From Nemertoderma westbladi (taxonomy: Eukaryota; Animalia; Xenacoelomorpha), in contig JAUCBJ010007917.1 of assembly GCA_032718475.1 (NCBI GenBank), positions 1 to 60,222 on the forward strand: a DNA stretch of 60,222 nt, written 5' to 3'. Numbering within the stretch: position 1 is the stretch's first letter; each line of letters begins with the position of its first letter. The notes beneath the pieces are model-generated. The model did not search any database, was not told where the DNA came from, and saw nothing but the letters and a program-made list of their open reading frames with translations. A program made the position numbers and the translations under genes. Of the stretch, positions 17,768 to 50,972 are shown piece by piece.

Positions 17768-18201
17768 CATGCTGGGCTCTAACTGCTGAGGACACCAAAT
17801 CTCTGGATGGCACATTCACAAGAATGCTACGCCGGGTACATTGTGTCAAGTACAATGCACACATCTCCAACCAGACACTATATAACATTGGAGGTGTCTT
17901 ATTGGTTCCCCCAAGCTTGACACTAGAACAAAATCGCCTCCGCTTTGCAGGACATTGCTTTCGCCGTGAGGACCAGCCAGTGCATAATCTTGTACTTTGG
18001 CAGCCTCATGGAGTGAATAAGCATGGTGGACAGCCCATGACTTTCTTGAGACGCATCTTAAAGGACACTGGCCTTAAAGATGCGGATGATCTAGCAAATG
18101 TCATGGGTGATAGGGAGTTGTGGCGGCGCAATTTTGTTGACAAGCCGGCACAGCATTCTTAAAAATGCAGCTGCAATGCAGCATGCCGATCCTAGTAGTA
18201 G
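17768..18201 (+). mobile_element. 5'-truncated RTE-like LINE insertion with 7-bp TSD TCCTCTC
   Basis: TSD at 17761-17767 and 18202-18208; (TAG)n tail; same protein as ORF 40-651. Confidence 0.9.
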
Positions 18202-20483: not shown

Positions 20484-23262
20484 TGTGAAAAGTCCAGTAG
20501 TATACCACCTACCGGATCCTAGTAACGATGTACCTTTCTGTAAGATCTAGTAGTGTATACGGGCTCGTACAGTATCTCACAACAAATCCCAGTCCAGGAT
20601 GTCTAAACAAACAGATACTAAATACGCGAACTACTACTGGCGAGGAACGGAGCCTGGTGTCTATTCTAATACGTGGGTGAGTCAAATGCCCGGGCGAACT
20701 AGACAAAACAGGATACCCGGCCTCTAACCGGTGAGGCAGATGTACAGTCTACAGTGACAGACCAAACTCACGGGAAAACAATCCCCACGCAGCGAATCCT
20801 AACTATCGCTAACGGACCTAAATACCGTAAACTTGCCGCGGTGTGATTTATATGGTTTATATACGAGCTAGTGGATTAACAGACTAGCGTAAAAATACTA
20901 CTAACAAGCGGTAGCAGACAAAAGGGGGTAGTACCTAAAGTAACAATACTGCTGACAGGGGCAAAGCAGTCAAATGGGTGCTTGCCATCTAAAATACTTG
21001 CCGTAAACTAAATACTAAATATCTCCTAAAATTACAAATACGAATGGTAGAACTGCAGAATAAATCCTATTTAAAGTAACCTAAAGTAAACTAGTAGCTA
21101 GCAGGTCTCGAAGGGGGTATATATGTTTTAGGACGTGTGTGTGTGTGTGTGTGTTACAAATAAAACAATTTTGGTGTATCGCCGTCGTACTAGGTTTTGG
21201 TGATTTCTGACCAAAAACAATACCGGGCGCTAGCTACTAAAATAAGCTAGTCGCGCTCTGTAGAACTTTATACTTACAAAATGACGTCAAAGCTCTCTCC
21301 TTCCTATCCACAACTCAACCGGGCAATTACGGTGTTAGTAACTACATCCGTGATCGGCACAAATACCAGATTCTGGTTGTAAGATAAGAAATAGGTGTTA
21401 ATTGCTACCGTACGTTAGCTGATCTGGTATACAATTTGATTCTAGAATTTTGTTGCTGCGGTGGTTAGCAGCAAATACCTATCAGTACATGGCAAGGCGC
21501 GGTAGGATATTAATAAACCTCCCTAGGCCAAGCGAAGTGCTGGTAGCAGAAAGCTGCTCCTTGCCTGATCAAATATTTCGGGCTCAGACAGGGGTGGGCA
21601 AATGTATAAACTACAAAGTGAACCGGTACAGAGCTGTCAGTACTGCAAATCACCAAATTATGGAACTTGTGCTGTCTGCACCTAAAGTGTACTTGCGCGT
21701 ACTGACGAACAGCAATAGTTCACACCTGTAGGAGATACAGGTTAATCCGGGGATTTTGCTTGTTTGCTCCTGTCTAAGTCTAAAATATTCGATCCTAAAT
21801 TTTACGGCGTCCCAGGACGGCGTCACGCTTACCCTGATCTATAGGTCTTACTGCGGACAAGGGCGTCAAACAAAGTCTTACCTTCCTCTGAAGTGGGCGC
21901 TGTATGGCAAGAAGGGGGCATGCTTCGAACGGGCGCGCGGGCAAATCTAATGTGGGCGCTTAGCGTGTTGTGGACATCTTTCCCTGCGTTGCTGACGGCC
22001 TAACGGTTTAGGCAGCCATCTCTCAAATGTTTGGCTGTCCCAAAGGTGGACGAGACAAAATATACATGTTCAAAGTTTACAGTATATTTACGTAATTTAC
22101 AAAGATTTATCAAACAAATTTACTAATAAGTTTCAACAAGAAACTAACAAATATAACTAGTGAGAGTGTTATTAGAAATAACAAGAGTGATAACTGAAGG
22201 CAAACCAGCCCTTATATAGTAAATCTGGGACATAGAATCCGCTAGAACCTTCCAGAGCATTCCATGGCCTCACATTGGAGCAATAAGATGTTCCATGCCC
22301 TATGATTGGCCCAACTCATCATTCCATACGTTGTACGCACCTCATTGGCTTATCTAATTAGATCAAATGAAAATAAATTGCCCAAAAATGCAAATTTCCC
22401 GACTGGGATTCGAACTCATAACCTATCTGTAATGTAACCAACGCCTTAACCATCTGACCACTGCACCATTAGATTACCTACGGGTTTATGTGTACCAATA
22501 TGAATAGGCATATTACATTACTGTAATTTAATCAAAATGCGTCTGATTTTAGAAAGTTTTTACATTAAACTACAAGTGCTACTTTATAGTGAAATAATCC
22601 ATCACCGCTCCATGAAAACAGTAAGTAAGACTGTTTTCACCAATCGAAATATAAACTATTTACAAATATTTCTTAAGTCTAATAGTGGGGCCTAAAATAA
22701 TCACTACCTAATTATTGCATACTTAATATTGCAGATACGGCGTAAATACAATCTATCATACATACAAAATACAAATTTACCAATTAACTTTAGTGCATAA
22801 AATACAAAAAAATTAGCTTTCGGTTATCAAGATAAGCAAATTAAACAAATTAGAACAAATCAAAACAAATAATTTCAAAGCTTTCGATAATTCTTTCATA
22901 TATTACAAATATACATAATAAACTTTCCAAATTAAATCACTTCGAATATAAACAAACATAATGCGCTAATAATTTCCTAATAAGTCTTAAAATGTCCTCC
23001 TGACGATCTCAAAAGTTCGTCCTACTGGTCTAGATATCTTCTCCTGAGCGCTAATTGCTAATGGTAGGCTCGCAAGCCTTCCTTTCTCCAGCATCTCGCT
23101 CTCTACGCTTTCACTCCTCAACGCCTTCACCCTTTTATACAATTAATCGGTGACTTCGGTCTAGCTGGGCTTGGGCTCCTACGTCGAGTTGCCTGCGGTT
23201 CTAGAATACCGGGAAATGAAACGACCGCCGTCTCTTTGGGTTCGGTTTGATCATAGGATATC
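20484..23262 (-). mobile_element. Older BEL/Pao family 1 copy, 3' part: 3' LTR (20484-22604), 3' UTR and internally deleted ORF3 end
   Basis: Colinear, diverged match to 23263-26290, then jumps to the 29081-29112 homologue; continues at 42365. Confidence 0.85.
22396..22467 (-). ncRNA. tRNA-like A/B-box cassette in the old LTR
   Basis: GGTGCAGTGGTCAGATGGTTAAGGCG...GAGTTCGAATCCC. Confidence 0.6.
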
Positions 23263-25507
23263 TGTAAGGGTCCAGTAGTATACCGCTTACCAGATCCTAG
23301 TAACGATGTATCTTACTATGAGACTCTAGTAATGTATACGGGCTTGTACAGTATCTGACAACAAATCCCAGTCCAGGATATCTAAACAAACAGATACAAT
23401 ACACAAACGACTACTGGCGAGGAACAGAGCCTAGTATCTATTCTATGTACGTGAGCGGGTCTAATGCCTACGTACTAGACAAAAGGATACCTGTCCTCTA
23501 ACCGGTGAGGCAGATGTACAGTTACAGTAACAGACCAAACTCACGGGAAAACAATCCCCGCGCAGCGAATCCTAACTATCACTGACAGTCCTAAATACAG
23601 TAACTTGCCGCGGTGTGATTTATATGGTTTATATACGAACTAGGTGGTTAACAGACCTAGTGTAACAATGCTGATTACCCCTGTCTAAATCAGCCTAAAA
23701 GGTCGTGCCTAAATGTAACGATAACTGATCCCCCTGTACGAAATCAGTCTAAAGGGTCAGGCCTAAATGTAACAATAACTGCTGGACAGAAAACAACAGT
23801 TTAATAACGAAAGTGAAATACTCTCTCTTGCCGCAACTAAATCAGATCCTAATTTTACAAATACAGATAATTTCCACCTAAAGTAATGTATAGTGCGCTA
23901 TAGCTAGTAGAACTTTACGGGCAATATGTTTTAGGGCGTGTGTGTGTGGGTGTGTTACAAATAAAACAATTTCGTGTAATTCCTTTACTAGGTTTTAGTG
24001 ATTTTCTGACTAAATGATACCGTGCGCTAGCTACTAAAATAAACTAGTTGCGTTTGTAGAACTTTATACTCACAAATGACGTCAAAGCTCTCTCCTTCCT
24101 ATCCACAACCCAATGGGCAACCACAGTGTTAGTAACTACACCCGTGAACGGCACTAATACCAGATTCTGGTTGTAAGATAAGAAATAGGGGTTAATTGCT
24201 ACCGTACGTTAGCTGATCTGGTATACTAATTTAATTCTAGAACTTTGTTGCTGCGGTAGTTAGCAGCAATACCTATCAGTACGTGGCAAGGCGCGGTAGA
24301 ATATTAATAAACCTCCCTAGGCCAAGCAGTGTGCCGGTAGCAGAAATACTCCTTGCCTGATCAAATAGCTAACTCCAGACAGGGGGGGTACTAATGTACG
24401 TTCTACAAAGCGAACCGGTACCAAACAGTCAGTGCTACGAATCACTAAATTATGGAACATATGCTGTCCGTACCTAATATGTACTCGCGTACTGACGAAT
24501 GGCAATAGTTCGCACCTTTAGGAAGTACAGGTTAACCCAGGGGTTCGTAGGACTGACAAAGGGGGGGGTGTTTCTGTCTGAATATAATTATTTGATCCTA
24601 AATTTGCGGCGTCCAGTACGGCGTCACGCTTACCCTGATCTATAGGTCTTACGGCGGGCAAGGGCGTCGAACAAAGTCTTACCTTCTCACAAAGTGGGCG
24701 CTGCATGGCAAGTTGAGTATTTCGAAGGGGCAAAGGGGGTGCGCGATCAATCCAATGTGGGCGCTAGCGTGTTGTGGACATCTTTTCCCTGCGTTGCTTA
24801 CTGCCTAACAGTCTAGGCTGCCATCTCCCTGATGTTTGGCTGTCCCGAAGTTGGACCAAAAGAAAACATGTTCAGGAATTTGCAGTATATTTACAGTTTT
24901 ACAAAGGATTTATCAAATAAAGTTTCAACAAGAAACCGAAATAAACTAATAAGTAAGAGGTGATAATAACGTAAGAGGTGATAACCGAAGGCAAACCGGC
25001 CTTTTATACTAAAATATCGCACATGGAAACTAAACAGAATTTTCCACAGCTTCACATTTGAGCAATAAAGTGCTTCGTGCCCTATGATTGGCCCAGCTCA
25101 TCGTTCAACGCAGTCCGGCCCTTACACTAATCTGGGACATGGAATCCTAACAGAATTTTCCACTGCCTCACATTTGAGCAATAAGATAATTTATGCCCTA
25201 TGATTGGCCTGGCTCATCATTCGCTACGTTGTACGCTTCTCATTGGCCTACCAATTAGCACCAAACGAAAATAAATGGCCCCAAAATACAAATTTCCCGA
25301 CCGGGATTCGAACTCGTAACCTATGTAATGTAACCAACGCCTTAACCATCTGACCACTACGCCACGAGAGTACCTAAGGGTTTTATGTGTACAAATATGA
25401 ATAGGCATATTACATTACTGTAACTCAATCAAAATACGTCGGATTTTCGAAAGTTTTTACGTTAAAGTTAAACTACAAATGCTATCTTATAGTGAAATAA
25501 TTCATCA
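23263..25507 (-). repeat. 3' LTR of the family 1 element (2245 bp)
   Basis: Direct repeat of 40468-42364; contains TATAAAA (25002-25008, minus strand) and CCAAT boxes (25087, 25203, 25242). Confidence 0.95.
25294..25363 (-). ncRNA. tRNA-like A/B-box cassette in the 3' LTR
   Basis: GGCGTAGTGGTCAGATGGTTAAGGCGTTGG...ACGAGTTCGAATCCCGGTCGGGAA. Confidence 0.6.
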
Positions 25508-26054
25508 CTGCTCCATGAAAACAGTAAGTAAGACTGTTTTCACCAATCGAAATATAAAATATTTACAAACTACTTCTAAATCTACTGGTGGGGCCTAAAA
25601 TATAAAATATAATCACTATCTAATTATTGCATACTTAATATTGCAGATACGGCGTAAATACAATCGATCGTACATACAAATACAAATTTACGAATTAACT
25701 TTAGTGCCTAAAATACAAAAAAGGCTTTCGGTTATCAAGGTAAGCAAATTAAACAAATCAGAACAAATAAATCGAACAAATAAATCAAAACAAATCAAAC
25801 AAATAAATCAAACTCTTTCGATAAATCTTTATATATTGTAAATATACATAATAAACCTTCACCAAATTAAATCAGTCCAAATATAATATAAACATAATGC
25901 GCTAATAACTTCCAATAATGTCCTCCTGACGATCTAATAGTTCGTCCTGCTGGTCTGGATATCTTCTCCTGAGCACCAATTGCTAACGGTAGGCTCGCAA
26001 GCCTTCCTTTCCATATCTCGCTCCTCCAAACCCAACATTCAAACATAAATGTCC

Positions 26055-26123
26055 AATATAAATATCCAAATAAAATATCCAAATATAATATCCAAATATA
26101 ATATCCAAATATAATATCCAAAT
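26055..26123. repeat. ~13-bp tandem repeat (ataatatccaaat) between two copies of the 20-nt motif in the 3' UTR
   Basis: Visible directly in the sequence. Confidence 0.8.
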
Positions 26124-26157
26124 CGGTAGGCTCGCAAGCCTTCCTTCCACTCGCTTC

Positions 26158-29100
26158 CTATTCCTTCGCTGAGCGGGCTCGTCCACGTCCTCTAGTGCGA
26201 TTGGGGGGTGGTCGAGGTCGAACTGGGCTCGGACTTCGGCGTCGAGTCGTCGGTGGTTCCAAAACGCTAGGAAAGGGGACGACGGGAGTTTCGCACATCC
26301 GTCGTGCGCTTAATCCTCTAAATCCTCGTCCGATTCCAACTGTCGGCTTAACATCGGATCGAGTTTCTACAACGCTAGGAGGAAGTCGAAAAGGTAGGAC
26401 CGTTCCGTCCGTTGACACCTCGCTCTCTGACGTCGTTTGAATCCTAATGGGTTCAGTCAAAGCGTATCCTGTCCCTCCGCGTGGTTCTCTAGCAAGGGAA
26501 ACCGTGCCCCGAGTCATCCGGATTTGTGACTTCAACGTCGTCCTCTCGGCGACATTCACTATCTTCTTAATCTCTTGTCCGGCCTTCTGGGCTTTGAGTA
26601 TACGAAATTGCTGATCATCCTGTGGGTGACGCGTCTTCTCTGCTAACGGCGTGGCCTTGAAGCCAGTCTCACGCAAAACGTCGGTCTCGTCCAGAATGCA
26701 CGAGGTTACGCGTTTGTGATAAAATGCCCTCCGGTATGCCCAAGCTATCGAATGCCAGGCTCCTCGATTCCGCTGTTCAACTCGCAGTTTATCGAATTCT
26801 CCGGCGGTAATCTTGTTCACCACAGTTTGAAAGTTCCAAGTATTCTTGTTGTCAGGGTGCACTTGTAAGAAATAGTCCCGCACAACTTTGAATCCACTGT
26901 CCAACGGCAATATATCCAATACCTCCAACAATTCATCGTACTGAGGCATAGCCGATACATATCCTTCCTTTGACATTATGAGAGGGTTTACGGCCCAAAA
27001 TCCCAAATGTGCTCTCATAGGGAAGCGGCGTCGCTGTGTCGATACATGCTCGTCTGCTAGATCCTCCCAATGGTCGAATAATTGTCGAACGATTTTAACT
27101 GACATGTGCTCATAGGGGACGTCGCTAAGTTGACATTCGGATGCCCTATGGCCCTTAATATTACAATAAGTACACTGCGCCACGATACGCCAGCAAGTGT
27201 AGAAGGTGTGCGAACGTTGATCCCCGCACCAGTTGCATACTAAATCCGGTAGAGATATGTGCTTCGCTCCGCACTTCTTTGCGTGATGGCCAGTTGCTCC
27301 ACATCTGCCACAAATAGTGTTGGCAGGATACCAAACTCGCTCATAGATGAGATCTCCGATGGGGCGAGCGCTACCGTCCACGTGATAATTCTCATCATCC
27401 GGGTCAGTCGGTATGTTCGTCTCCGTAGGTTGTACACAAACCATGGCATCGCTTTTCTCTAACTTGCGTATCTCAGTTCGCGTCTTCCTCGGAAGGTTCT
27501 CCTCTATTTCTATGAGTTGCCGTAACGGTTCGTCTATTAGCGCCAACTCGGTCGGATCCACATCGTCATGATGGGCGGTAGGCTCGCGAGCCTTCCAGGA
27601 TCCTTCCGGGCGTTCGAATTCCGCGTGGCGTTCCCCGTCATAGGGTACTAACGTTAACATCGACGGTCTGTCGACTAGACTTCCCGCGTGAGTGAGATAG
27701 ACGTCCCTGAAAACGCTAAGTCCCGCTCGCGTGAAAACTTCGCAGTGCGCATCGGTGTTATAAAAGGGTTGGAGAAATCGTCGGAATACATCAGTATGCG
27801 TCCTTCCTCCATCGTAAAAGGTATGTCCTTCGCCAAGACATAACGGGTGTCGCTTTAAGGTTCTGGATACTACGTCCGCGATGAAACAAACGTTAACCGA
27901 AGATTCTATCGCTAAATAGTATTGCAAGATTATCCGCGGAGGTGAAGTAATCGCCCAATACACGCAACCTCGCCACTTCAACTGTGACTCGAACTCGTTT
28001 ACGCCGGGGGTATCTCCCTCTCCGTATACGTCCGTGTATTTGTTCCTCTTACTCTCCTTGTAATCCCAACTGAACATTAGATATGAGATATAACCCGTTC
28101 CAGTTTTTAGCGTGTTATACTCCCTAAAGTATCCTTGCTCAATAGCCCAAAGCAACAATGGTCTAGTATCCACGTATGGCGTAGGCAATCGGTCCTCTTC
28201 CGTGGGCATCCCTGCAAAGTCGCTAATGAGGTCATCCCGTACACCGGATCCGATCTTGACGATGCTCTTATCCAACACAACGTCTCGCACGGCCTTTGGC
28301 AACATCCTAGCTTCTATGCTACAAGCCAGGTCCATGGATTTAACTATCCGTTTTATCATCGCATGTCTTTGCGTCGTTCCTTCCGGCATAGGCATCTTCC
28401 TATCACTCCTCTGTCGGCTGAAGACATGTAACACGCCATCTGGTGCTCTAATCTGTATAGTCTTTGAAGTGAGGCTTTGCTGATGGCTTCCTCCTTCATT
28501 ATCGTAAAACATATATCCATTCTCTTTCAGAGATCGGCTAGTCACGTCCCAATCGTCGAGTAAATCGTCGGTAGGGTTCCAAATTCTCCCGATCGAGTTT
28601 TCATCATTGAAACTAATAGGTTTACCGGTCCAATTGGTCGCGATATCGGTGTCGGTCTCAAACGTCCCAACTCCGATCCATAATCGAATCGTTTTCGTCA
28701 GATATCCTCGTAAGATACAAGGTGCGATATCCGTCCCCGCGCGATCCACTTCCTTAAAGTCTGTGATATGTGGAGGCACGTTGCGTACGATTTTTTGAAC
28801 TATTACTTTACGCAACTCGGTTGATTCTAACACATCACCGAAGGTGACCGATGGGAGGAAATCCAGGTTCGAGATGATCTCCGGGTGTTCAACTATAGGG
28901 ATCTCGTAAGTTGTCTCCTTCCGGGTCGGTATACTAATAGGAAAACTAGTTGGTCTCGCAACCGGTACTATCGCTCCAGTAGAATGGGGCTGAGGTTCTC
29001 GCGTCATCTCGACATGAGGTATCTGTAGTCTCTGCGACAAACGCTGAGCAAAGGTGATACTATCGAAGAGCCCGGGTGTCATCTCCTTGGGTTCGGTTTG

Positions 29101-29913
29101 ATCGTGGGATATCCAATAGAATGGTAGGCTCGCGAGCCTTCCGCCGAACTCCTCGATCTCGCCTTTCTCGTACGCCTTGTACGCCCTGTAGAGGCTCAAA
29201 GCTTCCCGTTTCTCTTGTGTCGACTTATTAGACTCGTCCACTACCATGCTGTAGACGTCTGGTTCGACTAATTTAGGTTTGTAAATAACGATCTCACCCG
29301 CGTTCGGTCCACTCATTTTAAATGAATGATACGGATTTGTCAAAGGGTATCCGCCTTCTTGGTAACGTAGACTTTGGTGGTATGAACATCGCGCTAATAT
29401 CGGCTCGGGGTTCTCCGAGTTCAACCGCATAGGAATTGCGTTGTCTTGCTCGCGCATACACGCTCCACATTTATAAAACAGTTTGTATACGGAAAACGCG
29501 TCCTTGGTCTCTGGATCCGCTCCTCGAGCGCGTCTATAAAGATGCATTCCTTCAAATTCGTCTCTAGCTGCAGGTAAGGGTTCGTTTACCGTCAAATATT
29601 GCAGCGTATGATACAATCGGCGTATTTCGGTGTCTGGATCCTCACAAATGTCGCTAGCGTCGCATAACGCATCGTAGGGATATAACGCATTGTATTCCGC
29701 GCGTAATTCCTCCGTTCTTTTATTGTATGCGTCCAACCGCTGTCGCGTAACATTCGGGTCCGCCTTGGATTTAGCGAGCTTGGCCGTACTCCTAGCCATA
29801 CTCTCCACTCCAAACACACTAAAGTTTTTAGCTCCATAACGATTGAATGGCGCCTGGTGCTCTTGTTCTTGCGTAAACCCTTGACGTAACTCTTTATACA
29901 TCTTCTCCGCCAT
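26158..29913 (-). CDS. ORF3, 1251 aa: WRN/EXD-like DEDDy 3'-5' exonuclease-fold domain, three CCHC zinc knuckles and a basic RG-rich tail
   Basis: TIQIRAPDGVLHVF..MLPKAVRDVVLDKSIVKIGSGVRDD..YVDTRPL..YW..QYYLAIES follows the WRN-exonuclease motif order. Knuckles: CGRCGATGHHAKKC, CNWCGDQRSHTFYTC, CTYCNIKGHRASEC. Confidence 0.8.
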   Translation of the reverse strand: MAEKMYKELRQGFTQEQEHQAPFNRYGAKNFSVFGVESMARSTAKLAKSKADPNVTRQRLDAYNKRTEELRAEYNALYPYDALCDASDICEDPDTEIRRLYHTLQYLTVNEPLPAARDEFEGMHLYRRARGADPETKDAFSVYKLFYKCGACMREQDNAIPMRLNSENPEPILARCSYHQSLRYQEGGYPLTNPYHSFKMSGPNAGEIVIYKPKLVEPDVYSMVVDESNKSTQEKREALSLYRAYKAYEKGEIEEFGGRLASLPFYWISHDQTEPKEMTPGLFDSITFAQRLSQRLQIPHVEMTREPQPHSTGAIVPVARPTSFPISIPTRKETTYEIPIVEHPEIISNLDFLPSVTFGDVLESTELRKVIVQKIVRNVPPHITDFKEVDRAGTDIAPCILRGYLTKTIRLWIGVGTFETDTDIATNWTGKPISFNDENSIGRIWNPTDDLLDDWDVTSRSLKENGYMFYDNEGGSHQQSLTSKTIQIRAPDGVLHVFSRQRSDRKMPMPEGTTQRHAMIKRIVKSMDLACSIEARMLPKAVRDVVLDKSIVKIGSGVRDDLISDFAGMPTEEDRLPTPYVDTRPLLLWAIEQGYFREYNTLKTGTGYISYLMFSWDYKESKRNKYTDVYGEGDTPGVNEFESQLKWRGCVYWAITSPPRIILQYYLAIESSVNVCFIADVVSRTLKRHPLCLGEGHTFYDGGRTHTDVFRRFLQPFYNTDAHCEVFTRAGLSVFRDVYLTHAGSLVDRPSMLTLVPYDGERHAEFERPEGSWKAREPTAHHDDVDPTELALIDEPLRQLIEIEENLPRKTRTEIRKLEKSDAMVCVQPTETNIPTDPDDENYHVDGSARPIGDLIYERVWYPANTICGRCGATGHHAKKCGAKHISLPDLVCNWCGDQRSHTFYTCWRIVAQCTYCNIKGHRASECQLSDVPYEHMSVKIVRQLFDHWEDLADEHVSTQRRRFPMRAHLGFWAVNPLIMSKEGYVSAMPQYDELLEVLDILPLDSGFKVVRDYFLQVHPDNKNTWNFQTVVNKITAGEFDKLRVEQRNRGAWHSIAWAYRRAFYHKRVTSCILDETDVLRETGFKATPLAEKTRHPQDDQQFRILKAQKAGQEIKKIVNVAERTTLKSQIRMTRGTVSLAREPRGGTGYALTEPIRIQTTSESEVSTDGTVLPFRLPPSVVETRSDVKPTVGIGRGFRGLSARRMCETPVVPFPSVLEPPTTRRRSPSPVRPRPPPNRTRGRGRARSAKE

Positions 29914-29953
29914 CGTATACGAATATATGCGGTTACATATCGTTACGTTTCTA

Positions 29954-30150
29954 CTAGATGAAGCACAAAATAGAGGTTAGACGTGAGGTGACTTAGAGTT
30001 TGTCGGCCTTTGGCTCAACTCTGCTCTAAACCCCAACCCATTTGCCTAATGACTTCGGGTTCGCGTGATTTCGCACTGGCTCCTAATCCAAAAAATGTGC
30101 CGATAAAAAACGAATTCCGGGTAAACTAGCCGCGAGTCTAAAATACTCAC
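29954..30150 (-). other. Predicted 197-nt intron in the ORF3 5' UTR
   Basis: Donor AAG|GTGAGT at 30150; branch point CTAAC, pyrimidine tract and CTAG| acceptor at 29954. Both signals are conserved in the old copy (~43081-43279). Confidence 0.6.
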
Positions 30151-30646
30151 CTTTTAATTTCCCAAACTACGTTTCCCAAGAAAAATAGTGCAGTCGAGAA
30201 ATAATTGGTCTAAATAATAGTAGACACGACTACGTAGAACAAGGCCGATTTTCTTTTTTCCAAAAAAAATTTATCGGTAGGCTCGCAAGCCTTCCATCCG
30301 CTCTTGTCCTCCCCAATTTTAATTTTATCTAGCTGTATTCTAGAATTTGCTTTCACTGGAGAATCGCTTTTCTTAAATTTAAATCCAAATAAATGGATTT
30401 GTCTAATAAATTTTGAAAATTGTCTCACTTGTGGGTTCCAAGTGGAATTCCATTCCTACTGTACACACAATCCCGCTCCTATGTGATACATAAGGGTACT
30501 ACCCTCCATGTTCACATATAAAGACAATGGAATTCCACCGCTGTCTCTATCTACAGTGAAGAGGATTACAAATGCACGTACAGTAATACAAATACAAATA
30601 ACTAAAATACAGTAGGTCTATGTGGCGGCCAACAAAGGTCCCACAT

Positions 30647-33600
30647 CTATTTACTAATATTGGGTGGAGATTTGTAGTCTCCTGTCTCGTTTCTAGTCTC
30701 CTCAAGGAGTACGAGACGTTGTACAGGCCTATCTACGGTACTTCCGTCGATAGTCTTTACAGTAACTGTCCTCACTACACCAGATGTAGGGTGCGTGGTC
30801 AAAATGACTCCAGTTAGCCAAAACCGTCTTTTCAGATTAGCTTCAGCCAATAAAACATGGTCACCACGTCTTAAACATCGGGTATTTAGATACCAAGAAG
30901 TTCTGGTCGAAATAGAGGGCAAATAATATTTCTGCCATATTTCCCAGAATTTATTTGCAAGCAATTGAGTGATTTTCCAAGCCTTGTTGCTGTATCCGTC
31001 ACTATCAACGGGTACCGAAATGGGCAACAATGTCGTCGGCGCCTGCATAAGCAGGTGCGCTGGTGTCAAGGCAAACTGTACGTCGTTATTGTCTGGGATC
31101 AAAGCGATCGGTCTAGTATTTAAGATTGCTTCGATTTCTATTAGTAACATCGTTAGTTGGTCGTCTGTCAAGATGTGTTGCGTCGGTACGACTTTAGCCA
31201 TAGCTGTCTTTATTGAGCCAATCAGCCTTTCCCAGACGCCGCCTCTCCACGGACTGTCTGGAGTATTGAAAAACCAAACAATACGGTGAGGACGTAGTTC
31301 CTCGGAAATCTGGTTTGTGGTCCAATTTTCTCAAAGCTCTGGTTATTTCGTTCCGTGCACCCACAAAGTTTGTCCCTTGGTCGCAGTATATGGATTTGAC
31401 CAATCCACGTCTAGCGATAAATCGCCGTAAGGCTAGGATAAAGGCATTGGTGGTCAAGTCTGTTACTCGCTCTATATGGACAGCTCTGCTGGCCATGCAA
31501 GTGAAGATCAATCCCCAACGTTTTACCTGTACCCTTCCGCGTTTCGCGATTATGGGTCCAAAACAGTCTATCCCTGTCTCAATGAAAGGGGGTCTAAACG
31601 CCTGTAATCTAGCTAGCGGTAGTTCACTCATTTCTTGGTGTCCTATCCTCGCGTGCACCTTCTTACAAATAATACAGTTCTGTGTTACCGAACTTAGTGC
31701 CTTACTAGGTCTAATCAGTACAAACCTCGAGCGTAAGTGTGATAGACAGTGGTGTCTACCTACGTGTTTGAGTTGTACATGTGCGTCCAGTATCATAGCG
31801 CGCTGTAACTCATGGTGTTGCGGTATGATGATAGGATACCTAAAGTCAAGTGCAAAGTCGATGTTTTGGAGTCTGGACTTGTGACAAAGTAAGCCCCAGT
31901 AAATAATCGGACTCCAACTCAAAATCGGTGAAGACTTAATCTGTTTACCTTGTTTGATCGCTGTGAACTCTCGTGCGAAATATCGCAATTGATAATGTCT
32001 AATGATATCAACTTCACAGTGGTCGATTTCCTTTAAGGTAAGTCTTCTAGGAAAGTCGCGTTTGCCTCTGGCATATTGTCTCAATCGTTTGAGCCATGCT
32101 AACTTGCGGCACGCGTCAGTCCATGATCTAGTTAGGTTCACTATCCTGTCAACGTAAGTGTTGGTGACGTCATCGGGTAAGGTGTAGTCGTAGTGTGGAT
32201 ACTTGTCTGGACTTGGTAGGCCAACGGGCCTTCCGGTAGGTTTGTCTGAGTCCCCAAGTACGTCAATCTCTACGGTCTTACCTTTGCCGTCCGCACCTAA
32301 TGTGTCGACTGGCAGTAATGATTTCAACTCTATAGTGTCAGTGTGTTCCTGTGAGCCTGTAAGCTTCCTAACCTTAGTCACACGTTTACCTGTAGGTAAG
32401 TCAAGTACCTTCTTCGAGCGGAGTGTAATCCCTGTGGCCACACCTTTGTCGTCCAAAGAAGTCAAATTCGGTAAGTCTCTAAAAGTCCGCTCCAATGGGT
32501 CTTCGAATGGAATGTCTAGTAGACAGTCTGGTGAAGCATCTGGTGAACAGTCTGGTGAGACGTCTGGTGAGACATAGCGCGGAACATCCGGCGAAATGTC
32601 CTGTCGTCGGTCCCAAAGTCTGTCTAGCGTAACTTCTGTCAGAAAGTCTGGTTCAAAGTCTGGTGAACAGTCTGTCGAGATGTCTGGTGGAAAGTCTGGT
32701 GAGACGTCCGGTAGACATTCTGTCGAGAGTTCCATCAAACAATCTGGCAAACAATCCGGAGAACAATCTGGTGTCGCTTCTGGTGAATAATCTGGCGAGT
32801 AATCTGGTGAACAATCCGGCGAAACGTCTGGTGAAATCTCCCGCGGAACATCCGGCGAAGGATTCGTACAAGCGTCTGGTCGAGTGTCTGGCGAGACGTC
32901 TGGCGTAATGTCAGGTCTGGCGTCCAGGTCATCAGATTTCGTCCGTCCTTTTTTCCTCTTGACCTTGGCGTTGGCTTTCGCTTTAGACTTGACAACCTTG
33001 TCGAGTTTTATCTTGGCACCCTCTGGTATGGTGTTGGTTGTCGCGTCGAATAACGGTGGCCATTCGTCTGATGGTCGCTGTAGGAAATCGGGTCCTCTAA
33101 ACCAAAAGGATTTATTGTCCGGTTTACAAAAGTCAAGTGGTTGCATCCCCCGTGACGCGATGTCAGCTGGGTTCAGCTTCCCTGGACAGTGACGCCAATC
33201 TTGTTTGAGCGACCGGTCTAATATTTCAGCCTGTCTGTTGGCTACGAAAGTCTTGAACTCAAATGCTTCGTTGTTTATGTACCAAAGTACCAACGTCGCA
33301 TCCGTCCAATATGTGACCTTCAAGTTAGCCTCCAGCTCGCATTTAAATAGACTGACAATATCGGTGGATATCGTCCCGGCTTGCAGCTCCCCACGAGGTA
33401 CAGTCATATACTTCAATGGCATTGTTCTAGCCCTTGAAGTAACGAGAGATACATCGTAGCTGTCCGATGTCACTTGTCGTCTAAGGTACAAAGTAACCCC
33501 CAATCCATCCTTGCTAGCGTCACTAAAGCTGTGAAGCTCTAAATCGGCAGGAAAGGTGGTTTGCAAAGGAAAGTATACCCTTGGTATGGTATAGTCTTGT

Positions 33601-36344
33601 AGGAACGTCAGTTGGGCTTCCCAGTCCCTCCATCGCTCAGCTAACTTTTCTGGGATGGGATCGTCCCATTCCAGTCCGGCTTGCCAAATGCTGCGGAGTA
33701 TGATCCTAGCATGTAGGATCACTGGACTAATGAAACACAATGGGTCATACAATCGACTCATGGTCGATAAGCAAGTCCTCTTAGTGAGAGGTCTAGTCTG
33801 GTCGTTGGACCTTACACGTACCCTAAAATTGTCGGTGTTAGGGTCCCAACTAAGTCCTAATACTTTGGTCGTCGGCAGAGGTTCTAGGTCTAAGTCCAAG
33901 TCACCTCCACTGCGATCCATCGGGTCAAATGAGTTCACCAGTTCGGGTTCGTTGGAAGCGAACTTCGTCAGGTGAAATCCGCCCTCAGCGAGACAATCCT
34001 GGAGTTGGTGTGCTACGGTTGTAGCGCGCTCCAAGGTGTCACAACTCTTGAGGCCGTCATCCACGTAGAAGTCTCGTTCCACGGTCCGAACTACTTCTGG
34101 GTCAAATTGGTCTCGTCTGTCCAATGCTGTCTGCTTTAATGCGTACATGGTGCAGTTGGGGCTGTCCCTGGCTCCAAATACTCTTACCTGCATTTGGTAA
34201 GTTTCTGGCGGAAGTTGTAAGTTTCCGTCCAGATACCAAAGAAACCTCAAACTGTCCCTGTCCCGCTCCAAAGCCTTAACCTGGTGAAACATGGCCTCTA
34301 CGTCACAGGTGAAAGCCACTTTGCGTTGTCTAAAACGCATTAGGACTCCCATGAGGTAATTATTCATATTCGGCCCGTCCATCAGTTCTCTATTCATAAA
34401 CATCCCTTGGTAAAGCGCAGCGCAGTCGTTGACTACACGCACCTTGCCAGGTTTGTCCGGGTGTCGAACAAAATGATGTGGCAGGTAATATGTCTGGTCT
34501 GTGGTTACCTCGGGATTTAACATCCTAATGGCATATCCCTTTTGGAGATACGTCTGAAGTTGTGCATTGTATTGCATATGGGCCATCTCGTCTCGCAACA
34601 ATCGCTGCCTTATTGATTTGAGTCGCCTCAAAGCAAGCGGGTAATTGTTAACGAGTTTAGGTTGTCCATCGCGCCACAACATACCAACCTCATAGTGGCC
34701 ATTCGTGGTCTGGCGAATGGTATCTCTCATAATATTTAATGACCGTTTTTCCTGTTCTGACATAGCGGTCTCGTAACTACCGGGTTCTGCTGAGTCCTGT
34801 TCCAACCATTGTATGGTCCGTTCAGTCAGCAGTCGGTCAAGCGCTGCTTGCACTGCGCCATGGTCCTCGTCCACGTCTTCGTCCGCTGCGGTGGCTAGTG
34901 TCAATGTGTCTGGTAGGCTCGCAAGCCTTCCGGTGTCACTAGTCGGCGTCGAATCGTCGTGCGGCGGTTTGACAACCTTTTGATCTGTCGGTAGGCTCGC
35001 AAGCCTTCCAAGATCAACGACCGGTGTCGAAGCCTGGTGGGTGGGGTCAATGACCTTCGGATTTTTCGGTAGGCTCGCAAGCCTTCCAAAATCCTCGTTC
35101 ATCGAGTCATCCACGGCAACAACCCTTAGGTCTTCAGTAGTCAATACAACCTGGTCTACTGCAAGTAGTTGTAAGTCAGAGGTCCGTATGGTCGTGTCCA
35201 GATCGGTTAAGTCAGTATCGGTGGCGTCTGCGTTAGTGACGCAAGTCTGTCGTAGTGCCGTCCGTACAATTGGACCACAGGAGTGTGAAGGAGAATTATC
35301 TATCATGTTAGTCAATAAACTACACGTACTCAAAACGTCGTCCTCCTGGTCACTTACCTCTAGTGAACGTATTGGTGCTCTAGTATACCAACCTATGGGA
35401 GTTCTACATGCGTAGGGGTTGCCCGCTGTAATAACAGATGGGCGTGTCTCCCATACCTGATGTAAGTTAAACTGGTCTGTCCCAATTAACATCGCAATAG
35501 AACGATAATTAACAGGACATTCTGGTATTCCAAGGTGTCGGAAATACTTACGATCTTCCGGTGATTGCTCTGGCACAGGGCCGAGCAAGTTACTAAAGTC
35601 CTTCGTAGCTGCAAAGGTCAAATTTCTTACCGGAAGTAATGAGCGCTCCTCCTTGCTGTGTTCCGCTTTGGAAAGAAGAGTGTCTAAAGTTAGTTTTACT
35701 CTCGTCACAGGAATCGCTCTCTTACCATGCATGCTGCTTACAGTATACTGAGCAGTCTTACCTTGACTCATGTCCGTAACTACGTCGGCTACTTGTTCGT
35801 CGACATAACTATGCGATGACGCAGAGTCTAAGATGGCGTATATACGCTTGCTCCCTCGGGTTCCGGTAATCTTTATAGGAATCACGCTAAACCCTTTCAA
35901 TTGGTTCTGTGTGAGGAGCGTTATCGAAGGCTGTTCCTCACCTGCATGCACGTAAAAAGTGTCGTCTTCCTCCTCGTCCTCGTCCGATGATCCTGATTGA
36001 TCCATACAGTCGGTATAAAAGGTACGGATCTCACGCGGCGCACGCTCCTTATAAAGCGCATCGCATCTAGCCGCTTTATCTGGATGCTCTCGTCGAAAGC
36101 GTCTGGTCGGAGTATGACTGGTTGTGTGAAGCAACGCGTCATGGTTACGTCCACACAAAGAACATGTATCGTCGCTCGGGCAATCCTTCCGGACGTGTCC
36201 TGGCTTCATACATCTCCAACAGGAATCTAGAGATCGGATTTGGAGTCTCCTCTCCTCGATCCCTAACTCTTTAAAAGCGCGACATCCACGTAGTTTATGT
36301 CCGTTTCTGCGTTTCTGCCGTTCTGCTCGCAGTATGAGCATCAC
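30647..36344 (-). pseudogene. pol: BEL/Pao pol (zinc knuckles, aspartic protease, RT, RNase H, integrase) with a frameshift in integrase at ~31315
   Basis: CWRCMKPGHVRKDC; ILDSAS; FTCDVEAMFHQV; FYVDD; HSFSDAS; HHCC; DCFG/CDQG. The alternate frame carries NTPDSPWRGGVWERLIG and the integrase C-terminus (30647-31201). Confidence 0.92.
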
Positions 36345-39300
36345 ACAAAGTCCGCCGGCAACTGTTGTCGTGGCTGCGTGGTGCCGATAGGCGTCAGAAC
36401 TTTAGAAGTCTCAGTAGGGGTGGCGTAAGTAACGGCTTTCGCGTTCGTCGGAAGTGGTTTTGTCCGAGTCGGCGCAGAAACAGCTATCCCTTCCGCCGCG
36501 ATATGGTGATCGGTATAGTTCGATCGAGTCTCTATCACGGCCTCCCGTGAAATAAGTTGATAGACATCGGTGAGTTTTAATAACCCTCCGGCCTCTTCAC
36601 GCTGGTACTCGATGTGTCGCCATTCTCGTCGTAGTCGATGGTGAAGTCGACCGATTATTCGAATGAGAACCGTCGCTGCGTTAGCGTACTCGAGTTGTCC
36701 AATGGACCGTAAAGTCCCTATAGCGTTCTTTATTTCGTCCGCGAGTCGTAAAAGGTCGATCGGTCTCGAAATGTTGCCTCCTCTGCAGAGGTCTTCAATA
36801 ATGGATTTAGCCATGGCGACGTTACCGCCGTAAATCGAATACAAACGGTCGTACGCCAATTCAAAGGCATCTGGAACACCGATAAAGGTTTCCGCTAATC
36901 GTTTCGGCTCACCAGACAGAACTTGGAGCAAGTAATTAAACTTCTCCGTCGAGGTGAAAGCACACTTAGAGATCTGGGACTCTACGTAGTCTACCAGTGT
37001 GCGCCAGTGTTTCGCGTTGCCAGAGAACTTCGGCGGTTGCTGTGCCGGTAATCCGTGTCTAGCCGCGAATTTCGCAATCTCGCTAACCAAATCCAACTGT
37101 CCGCGTCCCTGTTCGGTGGCGTCGTCCAGTCGTTCCCTTCCGCGCGTTGTTTGTCGGTAGGAATTATTAATGGGATCTTCTTCTCGATGTGTCGGAGTCC
37201 GTCTAGTCTCCTGTTCTCTCCTCGGTGGTCGATGTTGTCTAGGTTGTTCCAACTCCACGCTGGTTCGTGATCGATCCGACGGTTGCGCTTCGAGTCGCTC
37301 TTCTATCTGAGCTAGTCGGTCCGCTACAGGTCGCATTATTTCGGCGAGTCTGTTGGTGCTGATCGCTTCCGCTGGTTGCAACGTGGTTTTCTGTTGGGGT
37401 GTTTCTCGAGGTGGATCGTCGATGTAGGGATTCGTCGACCTCTCCTCTCGTTTGTAATCTTCCGCCGCTCCAGTACGGAATATTTCCCGTTCCGTCGACT
37501 CCGAGTCGCTAGATGAGTCGCTGTTGTCCGGATAAGGTGGCTGGCGGGTTCGTGTCCGGCGTATTATTCTAGATTTCGTCCGTTGCGGTCCGGAATCTAT
37601 GGCTCTCCGTTGTTCGGTAGGCTCGCAAGCCTTCCACGAAGTCGTAGGTCTCGCTATATGTTGTCCGATCCCATGGGTACTACCCACATCCATCCTCCTC
37701 CGTAGTTCGGTAGGCTCGCAAGCCTTCCACGAAGTCGTAGGTTGCGTCGAACATTGTGTCAACGGTCGAGTGAAATAGTCGGGTTTCGTAGTCGGTCTGT
37801 AAATAACTGGATTTGCACAGCACGTCACAGGTTTAACTTGTAATGGTTTACTCACCTGTTTAATGGTCATAAACGCAGGTTCCTCTCTTCCTACAAGTAG
37901 ACTACGACTTACTGTAGGTGGACTAGTTGCGTTACCTGCTAAAATCGGCGATGAAGTCGCCCTAGGTTGCGGTATTTCTGTCACAACAAACCTGTTGCCT
38001 TGCGTCGAATGCACAGGCGTTATTTCCTTAGGTTTCGTAACGAAGACCGGTTTTATCGGAGTCGTGGGTTTGAGCATAGGAATAACTTGGGGAAAACGTT
38101 TACAGTAATCCTCGACGAACTCCTCTCCTCGATCTATCGCTCCCACACTTCCTTCCTCGATCCGCTTCTGTATTCCGCGATATCGAGCTTCCATACGATC
38201 CAGGGCAGACAAGTCGTGTCCAGTTCGCGATCTTATAGATCTATCTCTCGCGTCGAGTTCGAGGTCCGCTTGCGCGTTTGCTGTCTCGCGCGATCTACGA
38301 TTCAATTCGAACTGTAGTTGCATTTCCCTTTCGCGTCGATTCGCTACTTGTTGTTGTGCCGCTAACTCCGCTTCCTGTATAGCTAAGCGTGCGTTTATTT
38401 GTCGTGCCTCCAACTTAGCGCGAGCGTCGGACGCTGCCTTCTTCCGTGCTAACTCAGCTGCGTTTACCGCCGCAACTCGTACTAGCTCGTCGGCTGCCGC
38501 CGCCGCGGCTGCTTCTTGCGCCAAGTTTTCCTCCAATCTGCGCATTTCCGAAGCTTCGAATTCGGCTTGCGCCTTGAGTTGCGCAATTCTTGCCTCGTCC
38601 TCTCTATGTTGTTTCTCTCCTTCGATGGCGATCTGTGCCATCTGGTGTTGCGCTTCTTCCTCGGCGACTTGTTGTCGGCGTGCAACCTCCTGTTGTTGTC
38701 GAGTAATTCCAGACGCTGTTCTACTAACGTCGCCAACGTCGCTCCGTACGCTAACGAACGATCTATCCAGTGGTGGATGTTGGTAGGCTCGCGAGCCTTC
38801 CGTAGTGAGAACTTCCGTCGTCCCTCGCGGTTCGACTTCCGGTTCGTCGATCGGTACGCCGCATCTACGAAGAAAATTGGTCAGCGTTTCCAACCTTCCG
38901 TCCAGGCAGTAGAGTTCTTCTTCCTCTTCGGGTTGTAACAACGCGTCCGAAACTGACTCACCTAGCAGTTGGTCAAACTGCTCCTGTTGAGCCAATCTTA
39001 TTACTGACTTAAACTGGATAATGCTTTCTCTCGCACTTACTAATTTATCTACTATCTTTACCTGAGTAAAGTTGTCGCCACGCAACTCTGCAAGTTCGTG
39101 TAAACCTTTAAGTTTATCTACGGAGGCATGTACCCTACTTTCTATCCTTACCTGTAAGGTGTAGAACTCGTATCTCGACATCGGGGCGGTTAACTCGCGT
39201 AAAACGCGAAAACCTTCTCCGAGGTTCCGAGTAATCTGGGCCATGTGTCCTCCTATACTTCTAATAACGTTCTCCTGGCTTCCAGTCGAACTTACCATGT

Positions 39301-39526
39301 CCGGTTCCCGTGATCTAGTCTGCGGGACGGTAAGGAAATCTTCGATTCTGCCGTCGCCACGCGTTGCGGCTTCCGGTATTTCCGTTCGGGGTACCGGCGA
39401 CGCAAGCGGTGTGACATCGGTGGAATCTCGGGTTCTCCTTCTCGGTTCGTCTACTGTCGATCTGTCCGGGTCGCACGAGTCATAGTCGGTAGGTGGGTAT
39501 CTCGTCGAATGGGGTGTGTCACTCAT
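36341..39526 (-). CDS. gag: BEL/Pao gag (coiled coil plus DUF1759-like capsid region)
   Basis: PPKFSGNAKHW..EKFNYLLQVLSGEPK..AYDRL..YG matches the BEL gag core. Confidence 0.85.
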   Translation of the reverse strand: MSDTPHSTRYPPTDYDSCDPDRSTVDEPRRRTRDSTDVTPLASPVPRTEIPEAATRGDGRIEDFLTVPQTRSREPDMVSSTGSQENVIRSIGGHMAQITRNLGEGFRVLRELTAPMSRYEFYTLQVRIESRVHASVDKLKGLHELAELRGDNFTQVKIVDKLVSARESIIQFKSVIRLAQQEQFDQLLGESVSDALLQPEEEEELYCLDGRLETLTNFLRRCGVPIDEPEVEPRGTTEVLTTEGSRAYQHPPLDRSFVSVRSDVGDVSRTASGITRQQQEVARRQQVAEEEAQHQMAQIAIEGEKQHREDEARIAQLKAQAEFEASEMRRLEENLAQEAAAAAAADELVRVAAVNAAELARKKAASDARAKLEARQINARLAIQEAELAAQQQVANRREREMQLQFELNRRSRETANAQADLELDARDRSIRSRTGHDLSALDRMEARYRGIQKRIEEGSVGAIDRGEEFVEDYCKRFPQVIPMLKPTTPIKPVFVTKPKEITPVHSTQGNRFVVTEIPQPRATSSPILAGNATSPPTVSRSLLVGREEPAFMTIKQVSKPLQVKPVTCCANPVIYRPTTKPDYFTRPLTQCSTQPTTSWKACEPTELRRRMDVGSTHGIGQHIARPTTSWKACEPTEQRRAIDSGPQRTKSRIIRRTRTRQPPYPDNSDSSSDSESTEREIFRTGAAEDYKREERSTNPYIDDPPRETPQQKTTLQPAEAISTNRLAEIMRPVADRLAQIEERLEAQPSDRSRTSVELEQPRQHRPPRREQETRRTPTHREEDPINNSYRQTTRGRERLDDATEQGRGQLDLVSEIAKFAARHGLPAQQPPKFSGNAKHWRTLVDYVESQISKCAFTSTEKFNYLLQVLSGEPKRLAETFIGVPDAFELAYDRLYSIYGGNVAMAKSIIEDLCRGGNISRPIDLLRLADEIKNAIGTLRSIGQLEYANAATVLIRIIGRLHHRLRREWRHIEYQREEAGGLLKLTDVYQLISREAVIETRSNYTDHHIAAEGIAVSAPTRTKPLPTNAKAVTYATPTETSKVLTPIGTTQPRQQLPADFV

Positions 39527-40467
39527 GTCTTATTATATACGTCAAGTACGGGTAATAAAATGTCAAAGTGTCTGAATGTTGAAGTGTCAAACTTACCTCG
39601 GTATATATAGTATATATATACCCTAACCGGTACAAATAAATCAACAAGTCAGAATGTCGAAATGTCAAAATGTCGAAATGTACAAATGTCAAACTTACCT
39701 TGATATATATATATATCATATATATACCCTAACCGGTACAAATAAACTAACAAGGTATAAAATAAGTAGTAATCTAGCCTACCGGCTAAATTTGTACGAA
39801 TAAATGAGATAACGATATACGTTAACAAAATATAGATCAACAAGTACGAATAATAGGCTAAACAGCAACGTCTAACGGGAAAATAAGTACCAACAACACT
39901 ACAAATAGACAGTGAAACCCACAAATTTTGAGTACTACTGTGCTTTCTTAAGTTTGAACGACGCGAGTCGTAAAACTTACGTTCCTTTGATCTTCCAGTC
40001 GTACAAATTCCCAAATACAAACCGGACGTGGGTCTTTCCGTTTTTCGGCGGCGCGGACGAATTTATTATCTCCCAAACTTTGCGAAAAGCGGTCTAATCC
40101 TCGAAGCGGTCCAGAAATGAGTCCTTGAGTCCTGAAAAGGTCGAAGGTGAGAGTTTTACTTCTACGCTTACGAAAAATCTTCCTAGGTACCGATACAAAT
40201 TGGTCTTTAAACCCTATGTACCTTTTCAAGTACCGAAAAGTAACACCGCACACACACGGCGTAAAACAAAGTGCTACAAACTAACTGTTAGCTAGTCAAA
40301 TATTAAATACGAAAGTACTAGCTACCCTAAAAGCCTACTGAAGCAGGGGACGTTCTAAATTACTAAATTCGCTAACCTTAAATTTTAAATATCTCCTACT
40401 TTCAATAGCTAGCAGATCTAAACAATACTATACACTAATTTCAGAATTTGTATAATATACTTCCTAC

Positions 40468-42364
40468 TGTAAGGGTCCAGTAGTATACCGCTTACCAGAT
40501 CCTAGTAACGATGTATCTTACTATGAGACTCTAGTAATGTATACGGGCTTGTACAGTATCTGACAACAAATCCCAGTCCAGGATATCTAAACAAACAGAT
40601 ACAATACACAAACGACTACTGGCGAGGAACAGAGCCTAGTATCTATTCTATGTACGTGAGCGGGTCTAATGCCTACGTACTAGACAAAAGGATACCTGTC
40701 CTCTAACCGGTGAGGCAGATGTACAGTTACAGTAACGGACCAAACTCACGGGAAAACAATCCCCGCGCAGCGAATCCTAACTATCACTGACAGTCCTAAA
40801 TACAGTAACTTGCCGCGGTGTGATTTATATGGTTTATATACGAACTAGGTGGTTAACAGACCTAGTGTAACAATGCTGATTACCCCTGTCTAAATCAGCC
40901 TAAAAGGTCGTGCCTAAATGTAACGATAACTGATCCCCCTGTACGAAATCAGTCTAAAGGGTCAGGCCTAAATGTAACAATAACTGCTGGACAGAAAACA
41001 ACAGTTTAATATCGAAAGTGAAATACTCTCTCTTGCCGCAACTAATTCAGATCCTAATTTTACAAATACAGATAATTTCCACCTAAAGTAATGTATAGTG
41101 CGCTATAGCTAGTAGAACTTTACGGGCAATATGTTTTAGGGCGTGTGTCTGTGGGTGTGTTACAAATAAAACAATTTCGTGTAATTCCTTTACTAGGTTT
41201 TAGTGATTTTCTGACTAAATGATACCGTGCGCTAGCTACTAAAATAAACTAGTCGCGTTTGTAGAACTTTATACTCACAAATGACGTCAAAGCTCTCTCC
41301 TTCCTATCCACAACCCAATGGGCAACCACAGTGTTAGTAACTACACCCGTGATCGGCACTAATACCAGATTCTGGTTGTAAGATAAGAAATAGGGGTTAA
41401 TTGCTACCGTACGTTAGCTGATCTGGTATACTAATTTAATTCTAGAACTTTGTTGCTGCGGTAGTTAGCAGCAATACCTATCAGTACGTGGCAAGGCGCG
41501 GTAGGATATTAATAAACCTCCCTAGGCCAAGCAGTGTGCCGGTAGCAGAAATACTCCTTGCCTGATCAAATAGCTAACTCCAGACAGGGGGGGGGGGGGG
41601 TACTAATGTACGTTCTACAAAGCGAACCGGTACCAAACAGTCAGTGCTACGAATCACTAAATTATGGAACATATGCTGTCCGTACCTAATATGTACTCGC
41701 GTACTGACGAATGGCAATAGTTCGCACCTTTAGGAAGTACAGGTTAACCCAGGGGTTCGTAGGACTGACAAAGGGGGGGGGGTGTTTCTGTCTGAATATA
41801 ATTATTTGATCCTAAATTTGCGGCGTCCAGTACGGCGTCACGCTTACCCTGATCTATAGGTCTTACGGCGGGCAAGGGCGTCGAACAAAGTCTTACCTTC
41901 TCACAAAGCGGGCGCTGCATGGCAAGTTGAGTATTTCGAAGGGGCAAAGGGGGTGCGCGATCAATCCAATGTGGGCGCTAGCGTGTTGTGGACATCTTTT
42001 CCCTGCGTTGCTTACTGCCTAACAGTCTAGGCTGCCATCTCCCTGATGTTTGGCTGTCCCAAAGTTGGACCAAAAGAAAACATGTTCAGGAATTTGCAGT
42101 ATATTTACAGTTTTACAAAGGATTTATCAAATAAAGTTTCAAATACAAATTTCCCGACCGGGATTCGAACTCGTAACCTATGTAATGTAACCAACGCCTT
42201 AACCATCTGACCACTACGCCACAAGAGTACCTAAGGGTTTTATGTGTACAAATATGAATAGGCATATTACATTACTGTAACTCAATCAAAATACGTCGGA
42301 TTTTCGAAAGTTTTTACGTTAAAGTTAAACTACAAATGCTATCTTATAGTGAAATAATTCATCA
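40468..42364 (-). repeat. 5' LTR of the family 1 element (1897 bp; ~355-bp deletion of the core promoter)
   Basis: Near-identical to the 3' LTR except that the segment matching ~24929-25285 is missing (junction near 42140). Confidence 0.95.
42151..42220 (-). ncRNA. tRNA-like A/B-box cassette in the 5' LTR
   Basis: Same sequence as 25294-25363. Confidence 0.6.
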
Positions 42365-50930: not shown

Positions 50931-50972
50931 AGGTCATTGATCAAGAAAACTTGCCACCTCCATGCAGCATAA
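48237..50972 (+). pseudogene. pol: Family 2 pol: protease, RT and RNase H; integrase missing
   Basis: LVDSGA; YYLPLH; FTCDIEGMFNQV; FYVDDG; HMFSDAS; PKLEL; WTDS; NPAD. Confidence 0.92.

Follow-up and report, generated by a model that had tools for sequence, protein, structure and literature searches.

Exonuclease-type third genes of retrotransposons are already known. DEDDy-type open reading frames in third position (ORF3s) were published in 2017 for the bdelloid rotifer long terminal repeat (LTR) retrotransposons Juno, Vesta, and Athena/Terminon (PMC5408684), and those of Juno, Vesta, and Terminon also appear in PMC5718144, PMC6431247, and PMC6338049. The stretch analysed here, a window of 60,222 nucleotides (nt) from Nemertoderma westbladi, contains on its minus strand a BEL/Pao retrotransposon of 19.1 kb in total, whose own ORF3 occupies the place of an envelope (env) gene. 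This gene is under purifying selection and very probably encodes a DEDDy exonuclease fold, as indirect sequence and structure comparisons indicate. Its product is read, tentatively, as an accessory factor that would bind the RNA of the element itself and help to build or protect the ribonucleoprotein particle.

According to PMC5408684, the rotifer ORF3s resemble the present one in that they are not env genes, follow pol, have a DEDDy-type fold without transmembrane (TM) or coiled-coil segments, and show one acid exchanged between D and E (DEED in the rotifers, ExoIII here). The present ORF3 differs in its BEL/Pao host element ('BEL' and 'Pao' occur nowhere as whole words in PMC5408684) and in its 1251 amino acids (aa), three CCHC knuckles (CCHC occurs nowhere in that paper), long novel N-terminus, basic tail, and accompanying hairpin array; the two were set against each other by description, not by sequence. 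Dada elements likewise bear a DEDDy exonuclease, although they are DNA transposons with the domain inserted in the transposase and all four acids canonical, as described in PMC3706591. Among host proteins, Egalitarian, EXD1, and Exuperantia use the DEDDy fold for RNA binding; Egalitarian binds stem-loops, including that of the I-factor retrotransposon, and is reported to keep the DEDDy residues and to need none of them for this binding (bioRxiv 10.1101/2025.08.03.668247). Unlike these host gene products, ORF3 has no detected LOTUS, EHD, or SAM domain or dynein-adaptor site.

No DEDDy third gene of a BEL/Pao element was found described in the literature, subscription papers, Repbase, and paper supplements lying outside the search, which agrees with the original prediction that no BEL/Pao element with such cargo had been described. 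An RNase D-like domain may have been reported earlier for nematode Cer (BEL) elements. The further claim of the original prediction, that this is a new system, is overstated because DEDDy ORF3s were published in 2017 for LTR retrotransposons, though not for BEL/Pao. If its fold is correctly assigned, the present gene adds BEL/Pao to the rotifer elements as a carrier of exonuclease-type third genes, and it is under purifying selection, whereas the rotifer study, as far as PMC5408684 describes it, found none for its ORF3s. Since an intact protein is here accompanied by a short, invariant hairpin as an evident candidate ligand, the function of such genes becomes testable.

The element is assigned to BEL/Pao because DUF1759, Peptidase_A17, and DUF5641 exceed the Pfam cut-offs in its first two ORFs, in the Pao-type order of gag, protease, reverse transcriptase (RT), RNase H, and integrase. 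Three long minus-strand ORFs are present (39526-36341, 36341-31194 with a short piece at 31201-30647, and 29913-26158), the third of which follows pol and precedes the 3' LTR, in the env position. Its parts are as follows:

40468..42364, minus strand: 5' LTR, 1897 bp, TG...CA, missing 357 bp that in the 3' LTR contain the TATA-like box
23263..25507, minus strand: 3' LTR, 2245 bp, TG...CA
42365..42369, minus strand: target-site duplication GATAT, 5' side
23258..23262, minus strand: target-site duplication GATAT, 3' side
36341..39526, minus strand: gag-like ORF (DUF1759), with a Gag-type knuckle in the next frame
31194..36341, minus strand: pol, with knuckle, protease-like motif, RT (YVDD), Peptidase_A17, and integrase zinc finger; frame changes in the integrase region
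30647..31201, minus strand: C-terminal pol piece (DUF5641), in a different frame
26158..29913, minus strand: ORF3 (P0001), 1251 aa, ATG-initiated, uninterrupted

The LTRs, with TG..CA ends, show 10 mismatches in 1888 aligned bases (99.5% alike), and the element is flanked by GATAT, a 5-bp target-site duplication; the alternative that ORF3 lies within a giant LTR is ruled out by this duplication. Though young, the copy shows damage: its 5' LTR has lost the 357 bp with the TATA-like box, the Gag knuckle is in a different frame from gag, and the reading frame of pol shifts within the integrase part. ORF3 itself is the intact reading frame that was originally predicted in the env position of a BEL/Pao element. 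BEL/Pao elements are typically 4.2-10 kb long with LTRs of 0.2-1.2 kb, as given in PMC3118150 and PMC9094657. Compared with the env-bearing members described there, the backbone and the position of the third gene are alike, but the present element is about twice the usual size of the group, has 2.2-kb LTRs, and its third gene does not encode a membrane protein.

Two 117-nt units in U3 (24988-25222, minus strand) contain CCAAT boxes and sites resembling GG(A/G)AAATTC, and inverted sites similar to the latter, GGAATTCC, are found at about 30445-30540, upstream of ORF3. A 12-bp repeat at 32503-32871 encodes an S/C-P-D-rich pol insert between RNase H and integrase.

An older related copy in the window is split by the young element:

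42365..43414, minus strand: ORF3 leader and 5' part of ORF3 of the older copy, decayed, 84-91% identical
20484..23262, minus strand: remainder of the older copy, with 32 bp more of ORF3, a 3' untranslated region (UTR) with a twelfth hairpin (23082), and a 3' LTR (22604 to ~20485)

The young element sits inside the older copy's own ORF3, and both sides of the target duplication are older ORF3. ORF3 was compared with this copy and with contigs of sequencing runs. Over 229 codons of the older copy, differences at codon positions 1, 2, and 3 number 13, 5, and 59, respectively; 52 of the 65 single-change codons in this N-terminal comparison are synonymous and 13 are non-synonymous, with synonymous sites making up 21%, and the synonymous excess is significant even against a transitions-only expectation (p=3e-14). 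In the nuclease domain, 33 of 40 changes are synonymous among the differences listed (103 in all), and these include no insertion or deletion across four runs. Run contigs from three studies span ORF3 at 80-100% identity. ORF3 is thus inherited within a family of multiple copies and is under purifying selection; the one-off host capture that the original prediction had named as the case against it is not what was found, with ORF3 present in both the older copy and the run contigs. Since the selection acts between element copies, the benefit goes to the element.

A reading of ORF3 as a passenger, a host gene captured recently and useless to the element, is highly improbable and already largely refuted. 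Most of ORF3 is deleted in some family members (contig joints such as 26288->29351, in two of four runs) and host proteins with PF01612 and CCHC exist (a Euglenozoa cluster), as a passenger would allow. However, the selection between copies argues against it, as do a composition like that of gag and pol (GC content at third codon positions 0.51 vs 0.49), a CpG observed/expected ratio of 1.32 vs 0.70 in flanking DNA, the element hairpins within the ORF3 coding sequence, and the lack of a close host homologue in protein searches.

The modules of the ORF3 protein are placed as follows:

27844..28551, minus strand: predicted DEDDy exonuclease-fold domain, about aa 455-690
27133..27312, minus strand: three CCHC knuckles, C-x2-C-x4/5-H-x4-C, at aa 868, 893, and 914 (span 868-927)
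29377..29469, minus strand: C149-x2-C152...C176-x2-H179, a possible zinc site in the N-terminal region, kept in the older copy
26911..27096, minus strand: post-knuckle segment common to ORF3 and the distant relative P0002, about aa 940-1001, of no known family
26161..26340, minus strand: Arg/Pro/RG-rich tail

The fold assigned to the nuclease region is supported by three indirect lines. Atlas feature (language-model) matches of aa 350-750 are PF01612 clusters in 24 of 30 cases, the best with a score of 0.91. An HMMER search with ORF3 aa 1-1000 against 1.84 billion representatives gave two matches: P0002 (E=1.2e-4; 558 aa, from a 7460-bp contig), a distant relative, and P0003, which matches through the knuckles only. 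P0002 and ORF3 share the order of exonuclease motifs, three knuckles, and post-knuckle segment, at 26-32% identity and in two collinear blocks (the nuclease, and the knuckles plus the segment behind them; E of 2e-9 and 3e-7 in the pairwise comparison). P0002 differs in having the full D-E-D-Y-D set and neither the long N-terminus nor the tail. All 10 structural neighbours among those listed for its Atlas model are clusters with PF01612, the best with a TM score of 0.73 (by target) over 199 residues. Finally, an hhalign comparison of the ORF3 and P0002 alignment with a profile of 50 bacterial RNase D-type members gave a match with E=0.0043 that falls in the ExoII register and outscores all 30 column shuffles. 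The DEDDy-type fold originally predicted at about 27880-28700 is supported, indirectly, by these lines, except for its start, which is near nt 28550. We presume a resemblance of the motifs to the WRN/EXD/Mut-7/Egl subgroup.

Several results weigh against the assignment. The Atlas score of 0.91 is also reached by 4-10% of shuffled proteins, the P0002 model has a predicted local distance difference test (pLDDT) value of 0.44 with neighbour rows below the tool's naming bar, and the hhalign match has a probability of only 8%. No match was obtained from Pfam at E<=10 with three slices of the nuclease domain, or from NCBIfam, PHROGs, and PDB sequence searches with ORF3, and hmmsearch with the RNase D-type profile scored ORF3 below 0. 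AlphaFold gave no confident fold (pLDDT 31 with one sequence and 29 with two), because no deep alignment is available. P0002 is the only distant relative found: a homologue search with alignment A1 returned P0002 only and one with alignment A2 returned none, and a search with aa 380-720 among proteins of 688-2190 aa gave none. The check by profile and structure that the original prediction had proposed is divided: the direct profile searches and AlphaFold gave no fold, while the Atlas feature matches, the hhalign comparison, and the PF01612 neighbours of the P0002 model lend indirect support. Viral, metagenome, and prokaryote contigs yielded no ORF3-related loci and phages no P0002-related loci, in collections poor in animal DNA, and Pfam detected no HRDC in ORF3. 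If the nuclease-like region were not DEDDy, the motif matches being chance and ORF3 a knuckle protein of another kind, the blank direct profile searches and the low confidence of both AlphaFold models would be expected. This is very unlikely, however, since all three lines point to PF01612 with a consistent register and P0002 carries every canonical motif in order.

The original prediction took GTFETD (aa 416) as ExoI and judged both ExoI and ExoIII to deviate from the consensus. In a MAFFT alignment with 50 bacterial RNase D-type domains and P0002, where GTFETD was also in the query, the D-x-E of these domains and of P0002 aligns to D471/E473 instead, and GTFETD is ruled out. ExoI is Y-D471-N-E473 (D471/E473 at 28503-28495), with canonical acids preceding the usual 'IQI' strand, and ExoII D561 (28233-28231) is intact in the registers of MAFFT and hhalign. 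Only ExoIII, Y666-x3-E670 (27918-27904), departs as predicted, with Tyr kept and Glu where Asp is usual; it was placed by pairwise alignment to YLRGD of P0002 and by spacing judged by eye, MAFFT having left ExoIII unplaced against the RNase D profile. The motifs of P0002 are D-x-E, D, and Y-x3-D, in order. Since the E670 codon has a synonymous variant among copies, E670 is a family trait and not the decay of one copy. The predicted active site is one conservative change from canonical, four of its five motif residues being canonical, and catalysis may be kept or reduced. The suggestion of an altered nuclease or pseudo-nuclease is weaker than first proposed because ExoI is intact and only ExoIII departs.

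ORF3 might be an active 3'-5' exonuclease for element replication, which would trim RNA or DNA 3' ends, e.g. an over-long self-made primer back to the duplex of the primer-binding site (PBS). This appears somewhat unlikely. It is consistent with the intact ExoI D-x-E and ExoII D, the complete D-E-D-Y-D set of P0002, the conservative nature of E670 and its synonymous variant, and the 3'-end processing proposed for the rotifer DEDDy ORF3s (PMC5408684) and for Dada transposons (PMC3706591). However, the last acid is non-canonical, the nuclease fold makes up less than one fifth of the protein, and no activity had been demonstrated for any retrotransposon DEDDy ORF3, as far as PMC5408684 reports. 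The priming arrangement of the element also bears on this possibility:

40454..40467, minus strand: primer-binding-site position, not TGG-type

No tRNA-type PBS with a TGG start follows the 5' LTR, although this is not a strict BEL/Pao criterion. A putative 331-nt GC-AG intron in the LTR (donor 24883/acceptor 24552; also 42097/41764) would create a junction with a 14-nt complement to the PBS position, a length reached by one of 60 shuffles. Both features fit a self-made primer, and the junction is no more than suggestive of one built by splicing; in the older LTR the corresponding donor reads GT, and no matching junction was obtained. Direct unspliced self-priming was rejected, its 9-nt match being at chance level. 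A tRNA-like A/B-box cassette, possibly a SINE-like head (short interspersed element), lies in the LTR at 25290-25372 (also 42152-42228 and ~22395-22475; minus strand). The original prediction had counted it as a tRNA cassette, a claim that gained no support: ARAGORN detected no tRNA gene, Rfam gave only one chance snoRNA row, and the A/B-box-like resemblance was seen by eye.

The preferred reading of ORF3 as an RNA-binding accessory factor falls somewhat short of an even chance. ORF3 is not an envelope, because every recognisable module (the predicted DEDDy fold, three knuckles, and Arg-rich tail) is of a nucleic acid-binding kind and membrane features are lacking. No hydrophobic segment reaches the length of a TM helix (Kyte-Doolittle mean of at most 1.48 over 19 residues), and no signal-peptide-like core occurs in the first 40 aa (best 9-residue mean 1.16). 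The signal peptide and TM anchor of an env glycoprotein are thus both absent, as originally predicted, and the knuckles (nt 27312-27133), the N-terminal CxxC..CxxH, and the RG-rich tail were likewise located. The isolated knuckle region falls just short of the Pfam zf-CCHC cut-off (E=5e-4), the tail contains 23% R and 18% P in its last 60 aa with four RG in the last 80 aa, and the N-terminal region, which is under purifying selection, matches no known family.

Two further features of the element's RNA are of interest for this reading:

29954..30150, minus strand: 197-nt intron predicted from sequence in the leader of ORF3 (donor AG|GTGAGT, CTAAC resembling a branch point, a pyrimidine tract, and TAG)
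25988..38801, minus strand: a 20-nt hairpin motif that recurs in 11 copies, each in coding-strand orientation, two inside ORF3 and three beside it

Both ends of the leader intron are kept in the older copy, which suggests a spliced ORF3 message. A run of another organism, presumed to be RNA, has no depth in the three bins at 27578-29539 and was left out of the evidence. The hairpins start at 38801, 37728, 37635, 35087, 35009, 34931, 30295, 29142, 27596, 26144, and 26007; they are spread over gag, pol, ORF3, and the UTRs in all three codon phases, with 11 sense and no antisense copies in the element. The 20-nt motif noted in the original prediction is confirmed, with 12 exact copies in the window vs none in 100 shuffles; it is absent from viral contigs, in a collection poor in animal DNA. 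The motif alone is predicted to form a short hairpin (-7.6 kcal/mol), which is predicted in eight of the 11 copies with 70-nt context, and only its first loop base varies, U or C. We take the loop to be of the YNMG tetraloop class. Since the U/C variant keeps the motif self-complementary, the motif might instead serve as a signal for RNA dimerisation or as a palindromic site in DNA. The insertion point of the young element lies 9 nt beyond the hairpin motif of its older relative (42365-42398), a single event that does not allow targeting to be judged.

In the proposed scheme, ORF3 would be expressed after splicing of the leader intron, its nuclease fold, knuckles, and basic tail would bind RNA, and the repeated hairpin may be recognised by ORF3, by analogy with the stem-loop binding of Egalitarian's DEDDy domain; catalysis would be secondary to binding. 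The scheme rests on the position of ORF3 in the element, family-wide inheritance, purifying selection, the knuckles, the lack of membrane features, and the 11 same-strand hairpins, together with the fold and D471, E473, D561, Y666, and E670, which are predicted from homology. Four canonical residues out of five, however, fit an enzyme as well as a binder. A more specific form, in which ORF3 is the reader of the element's own RNA tag and the 11 hairpins single out the RNA to be packaged, transported, or protected from small-RNA silencing, is doubtful. The tie between ORF3 and the hairpin is their presence in one element family only, and Gag, with its own knuckle, could be the reader. If true, a BEL/Pao retrotransposon would carry both partners of an Egalitarian-like or Rev-like pair of protein and RNA, perhaps with a splice-built primer trimmed by the nuclease.

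ORF3 may instead act in trans as a suppressor of small-RNA silencing, binding or shortening Piwi-interacting RNAs (piRNAs) or small interfering RNAs, or displacing host factors of the Mut-7/Nibbler/EXD1 type. Host proteins with the DEDDy fold act in piRNA biogenesis, according to PMC5408684, an EXD1-like cluster is among the Atlas neighbours of P0002 (score 0.80, a lead only), and the family is multi-copy and recently inserted. Such a role is nevertheless unlikely, and the rotifer families with ORF3 show no clear gain in copy number in the account given by PMC5408684.

Elsewhere in the window, a second BEL/Pao element (44378-50972, plus strand) is distantly related to the first, with 34% identity in pol over 623 aa; it breaks off before integrase and lacks the hairpin motif. 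A fragment of a non-LTR-type RT lies at 16571-17815 on the minus strand (RVT_1, E=3.5e-23). A 416-bp tandem array of 10 copies and a 22/30-bp self-complementary satellite occupy 51398-55645 and 4495-5650.

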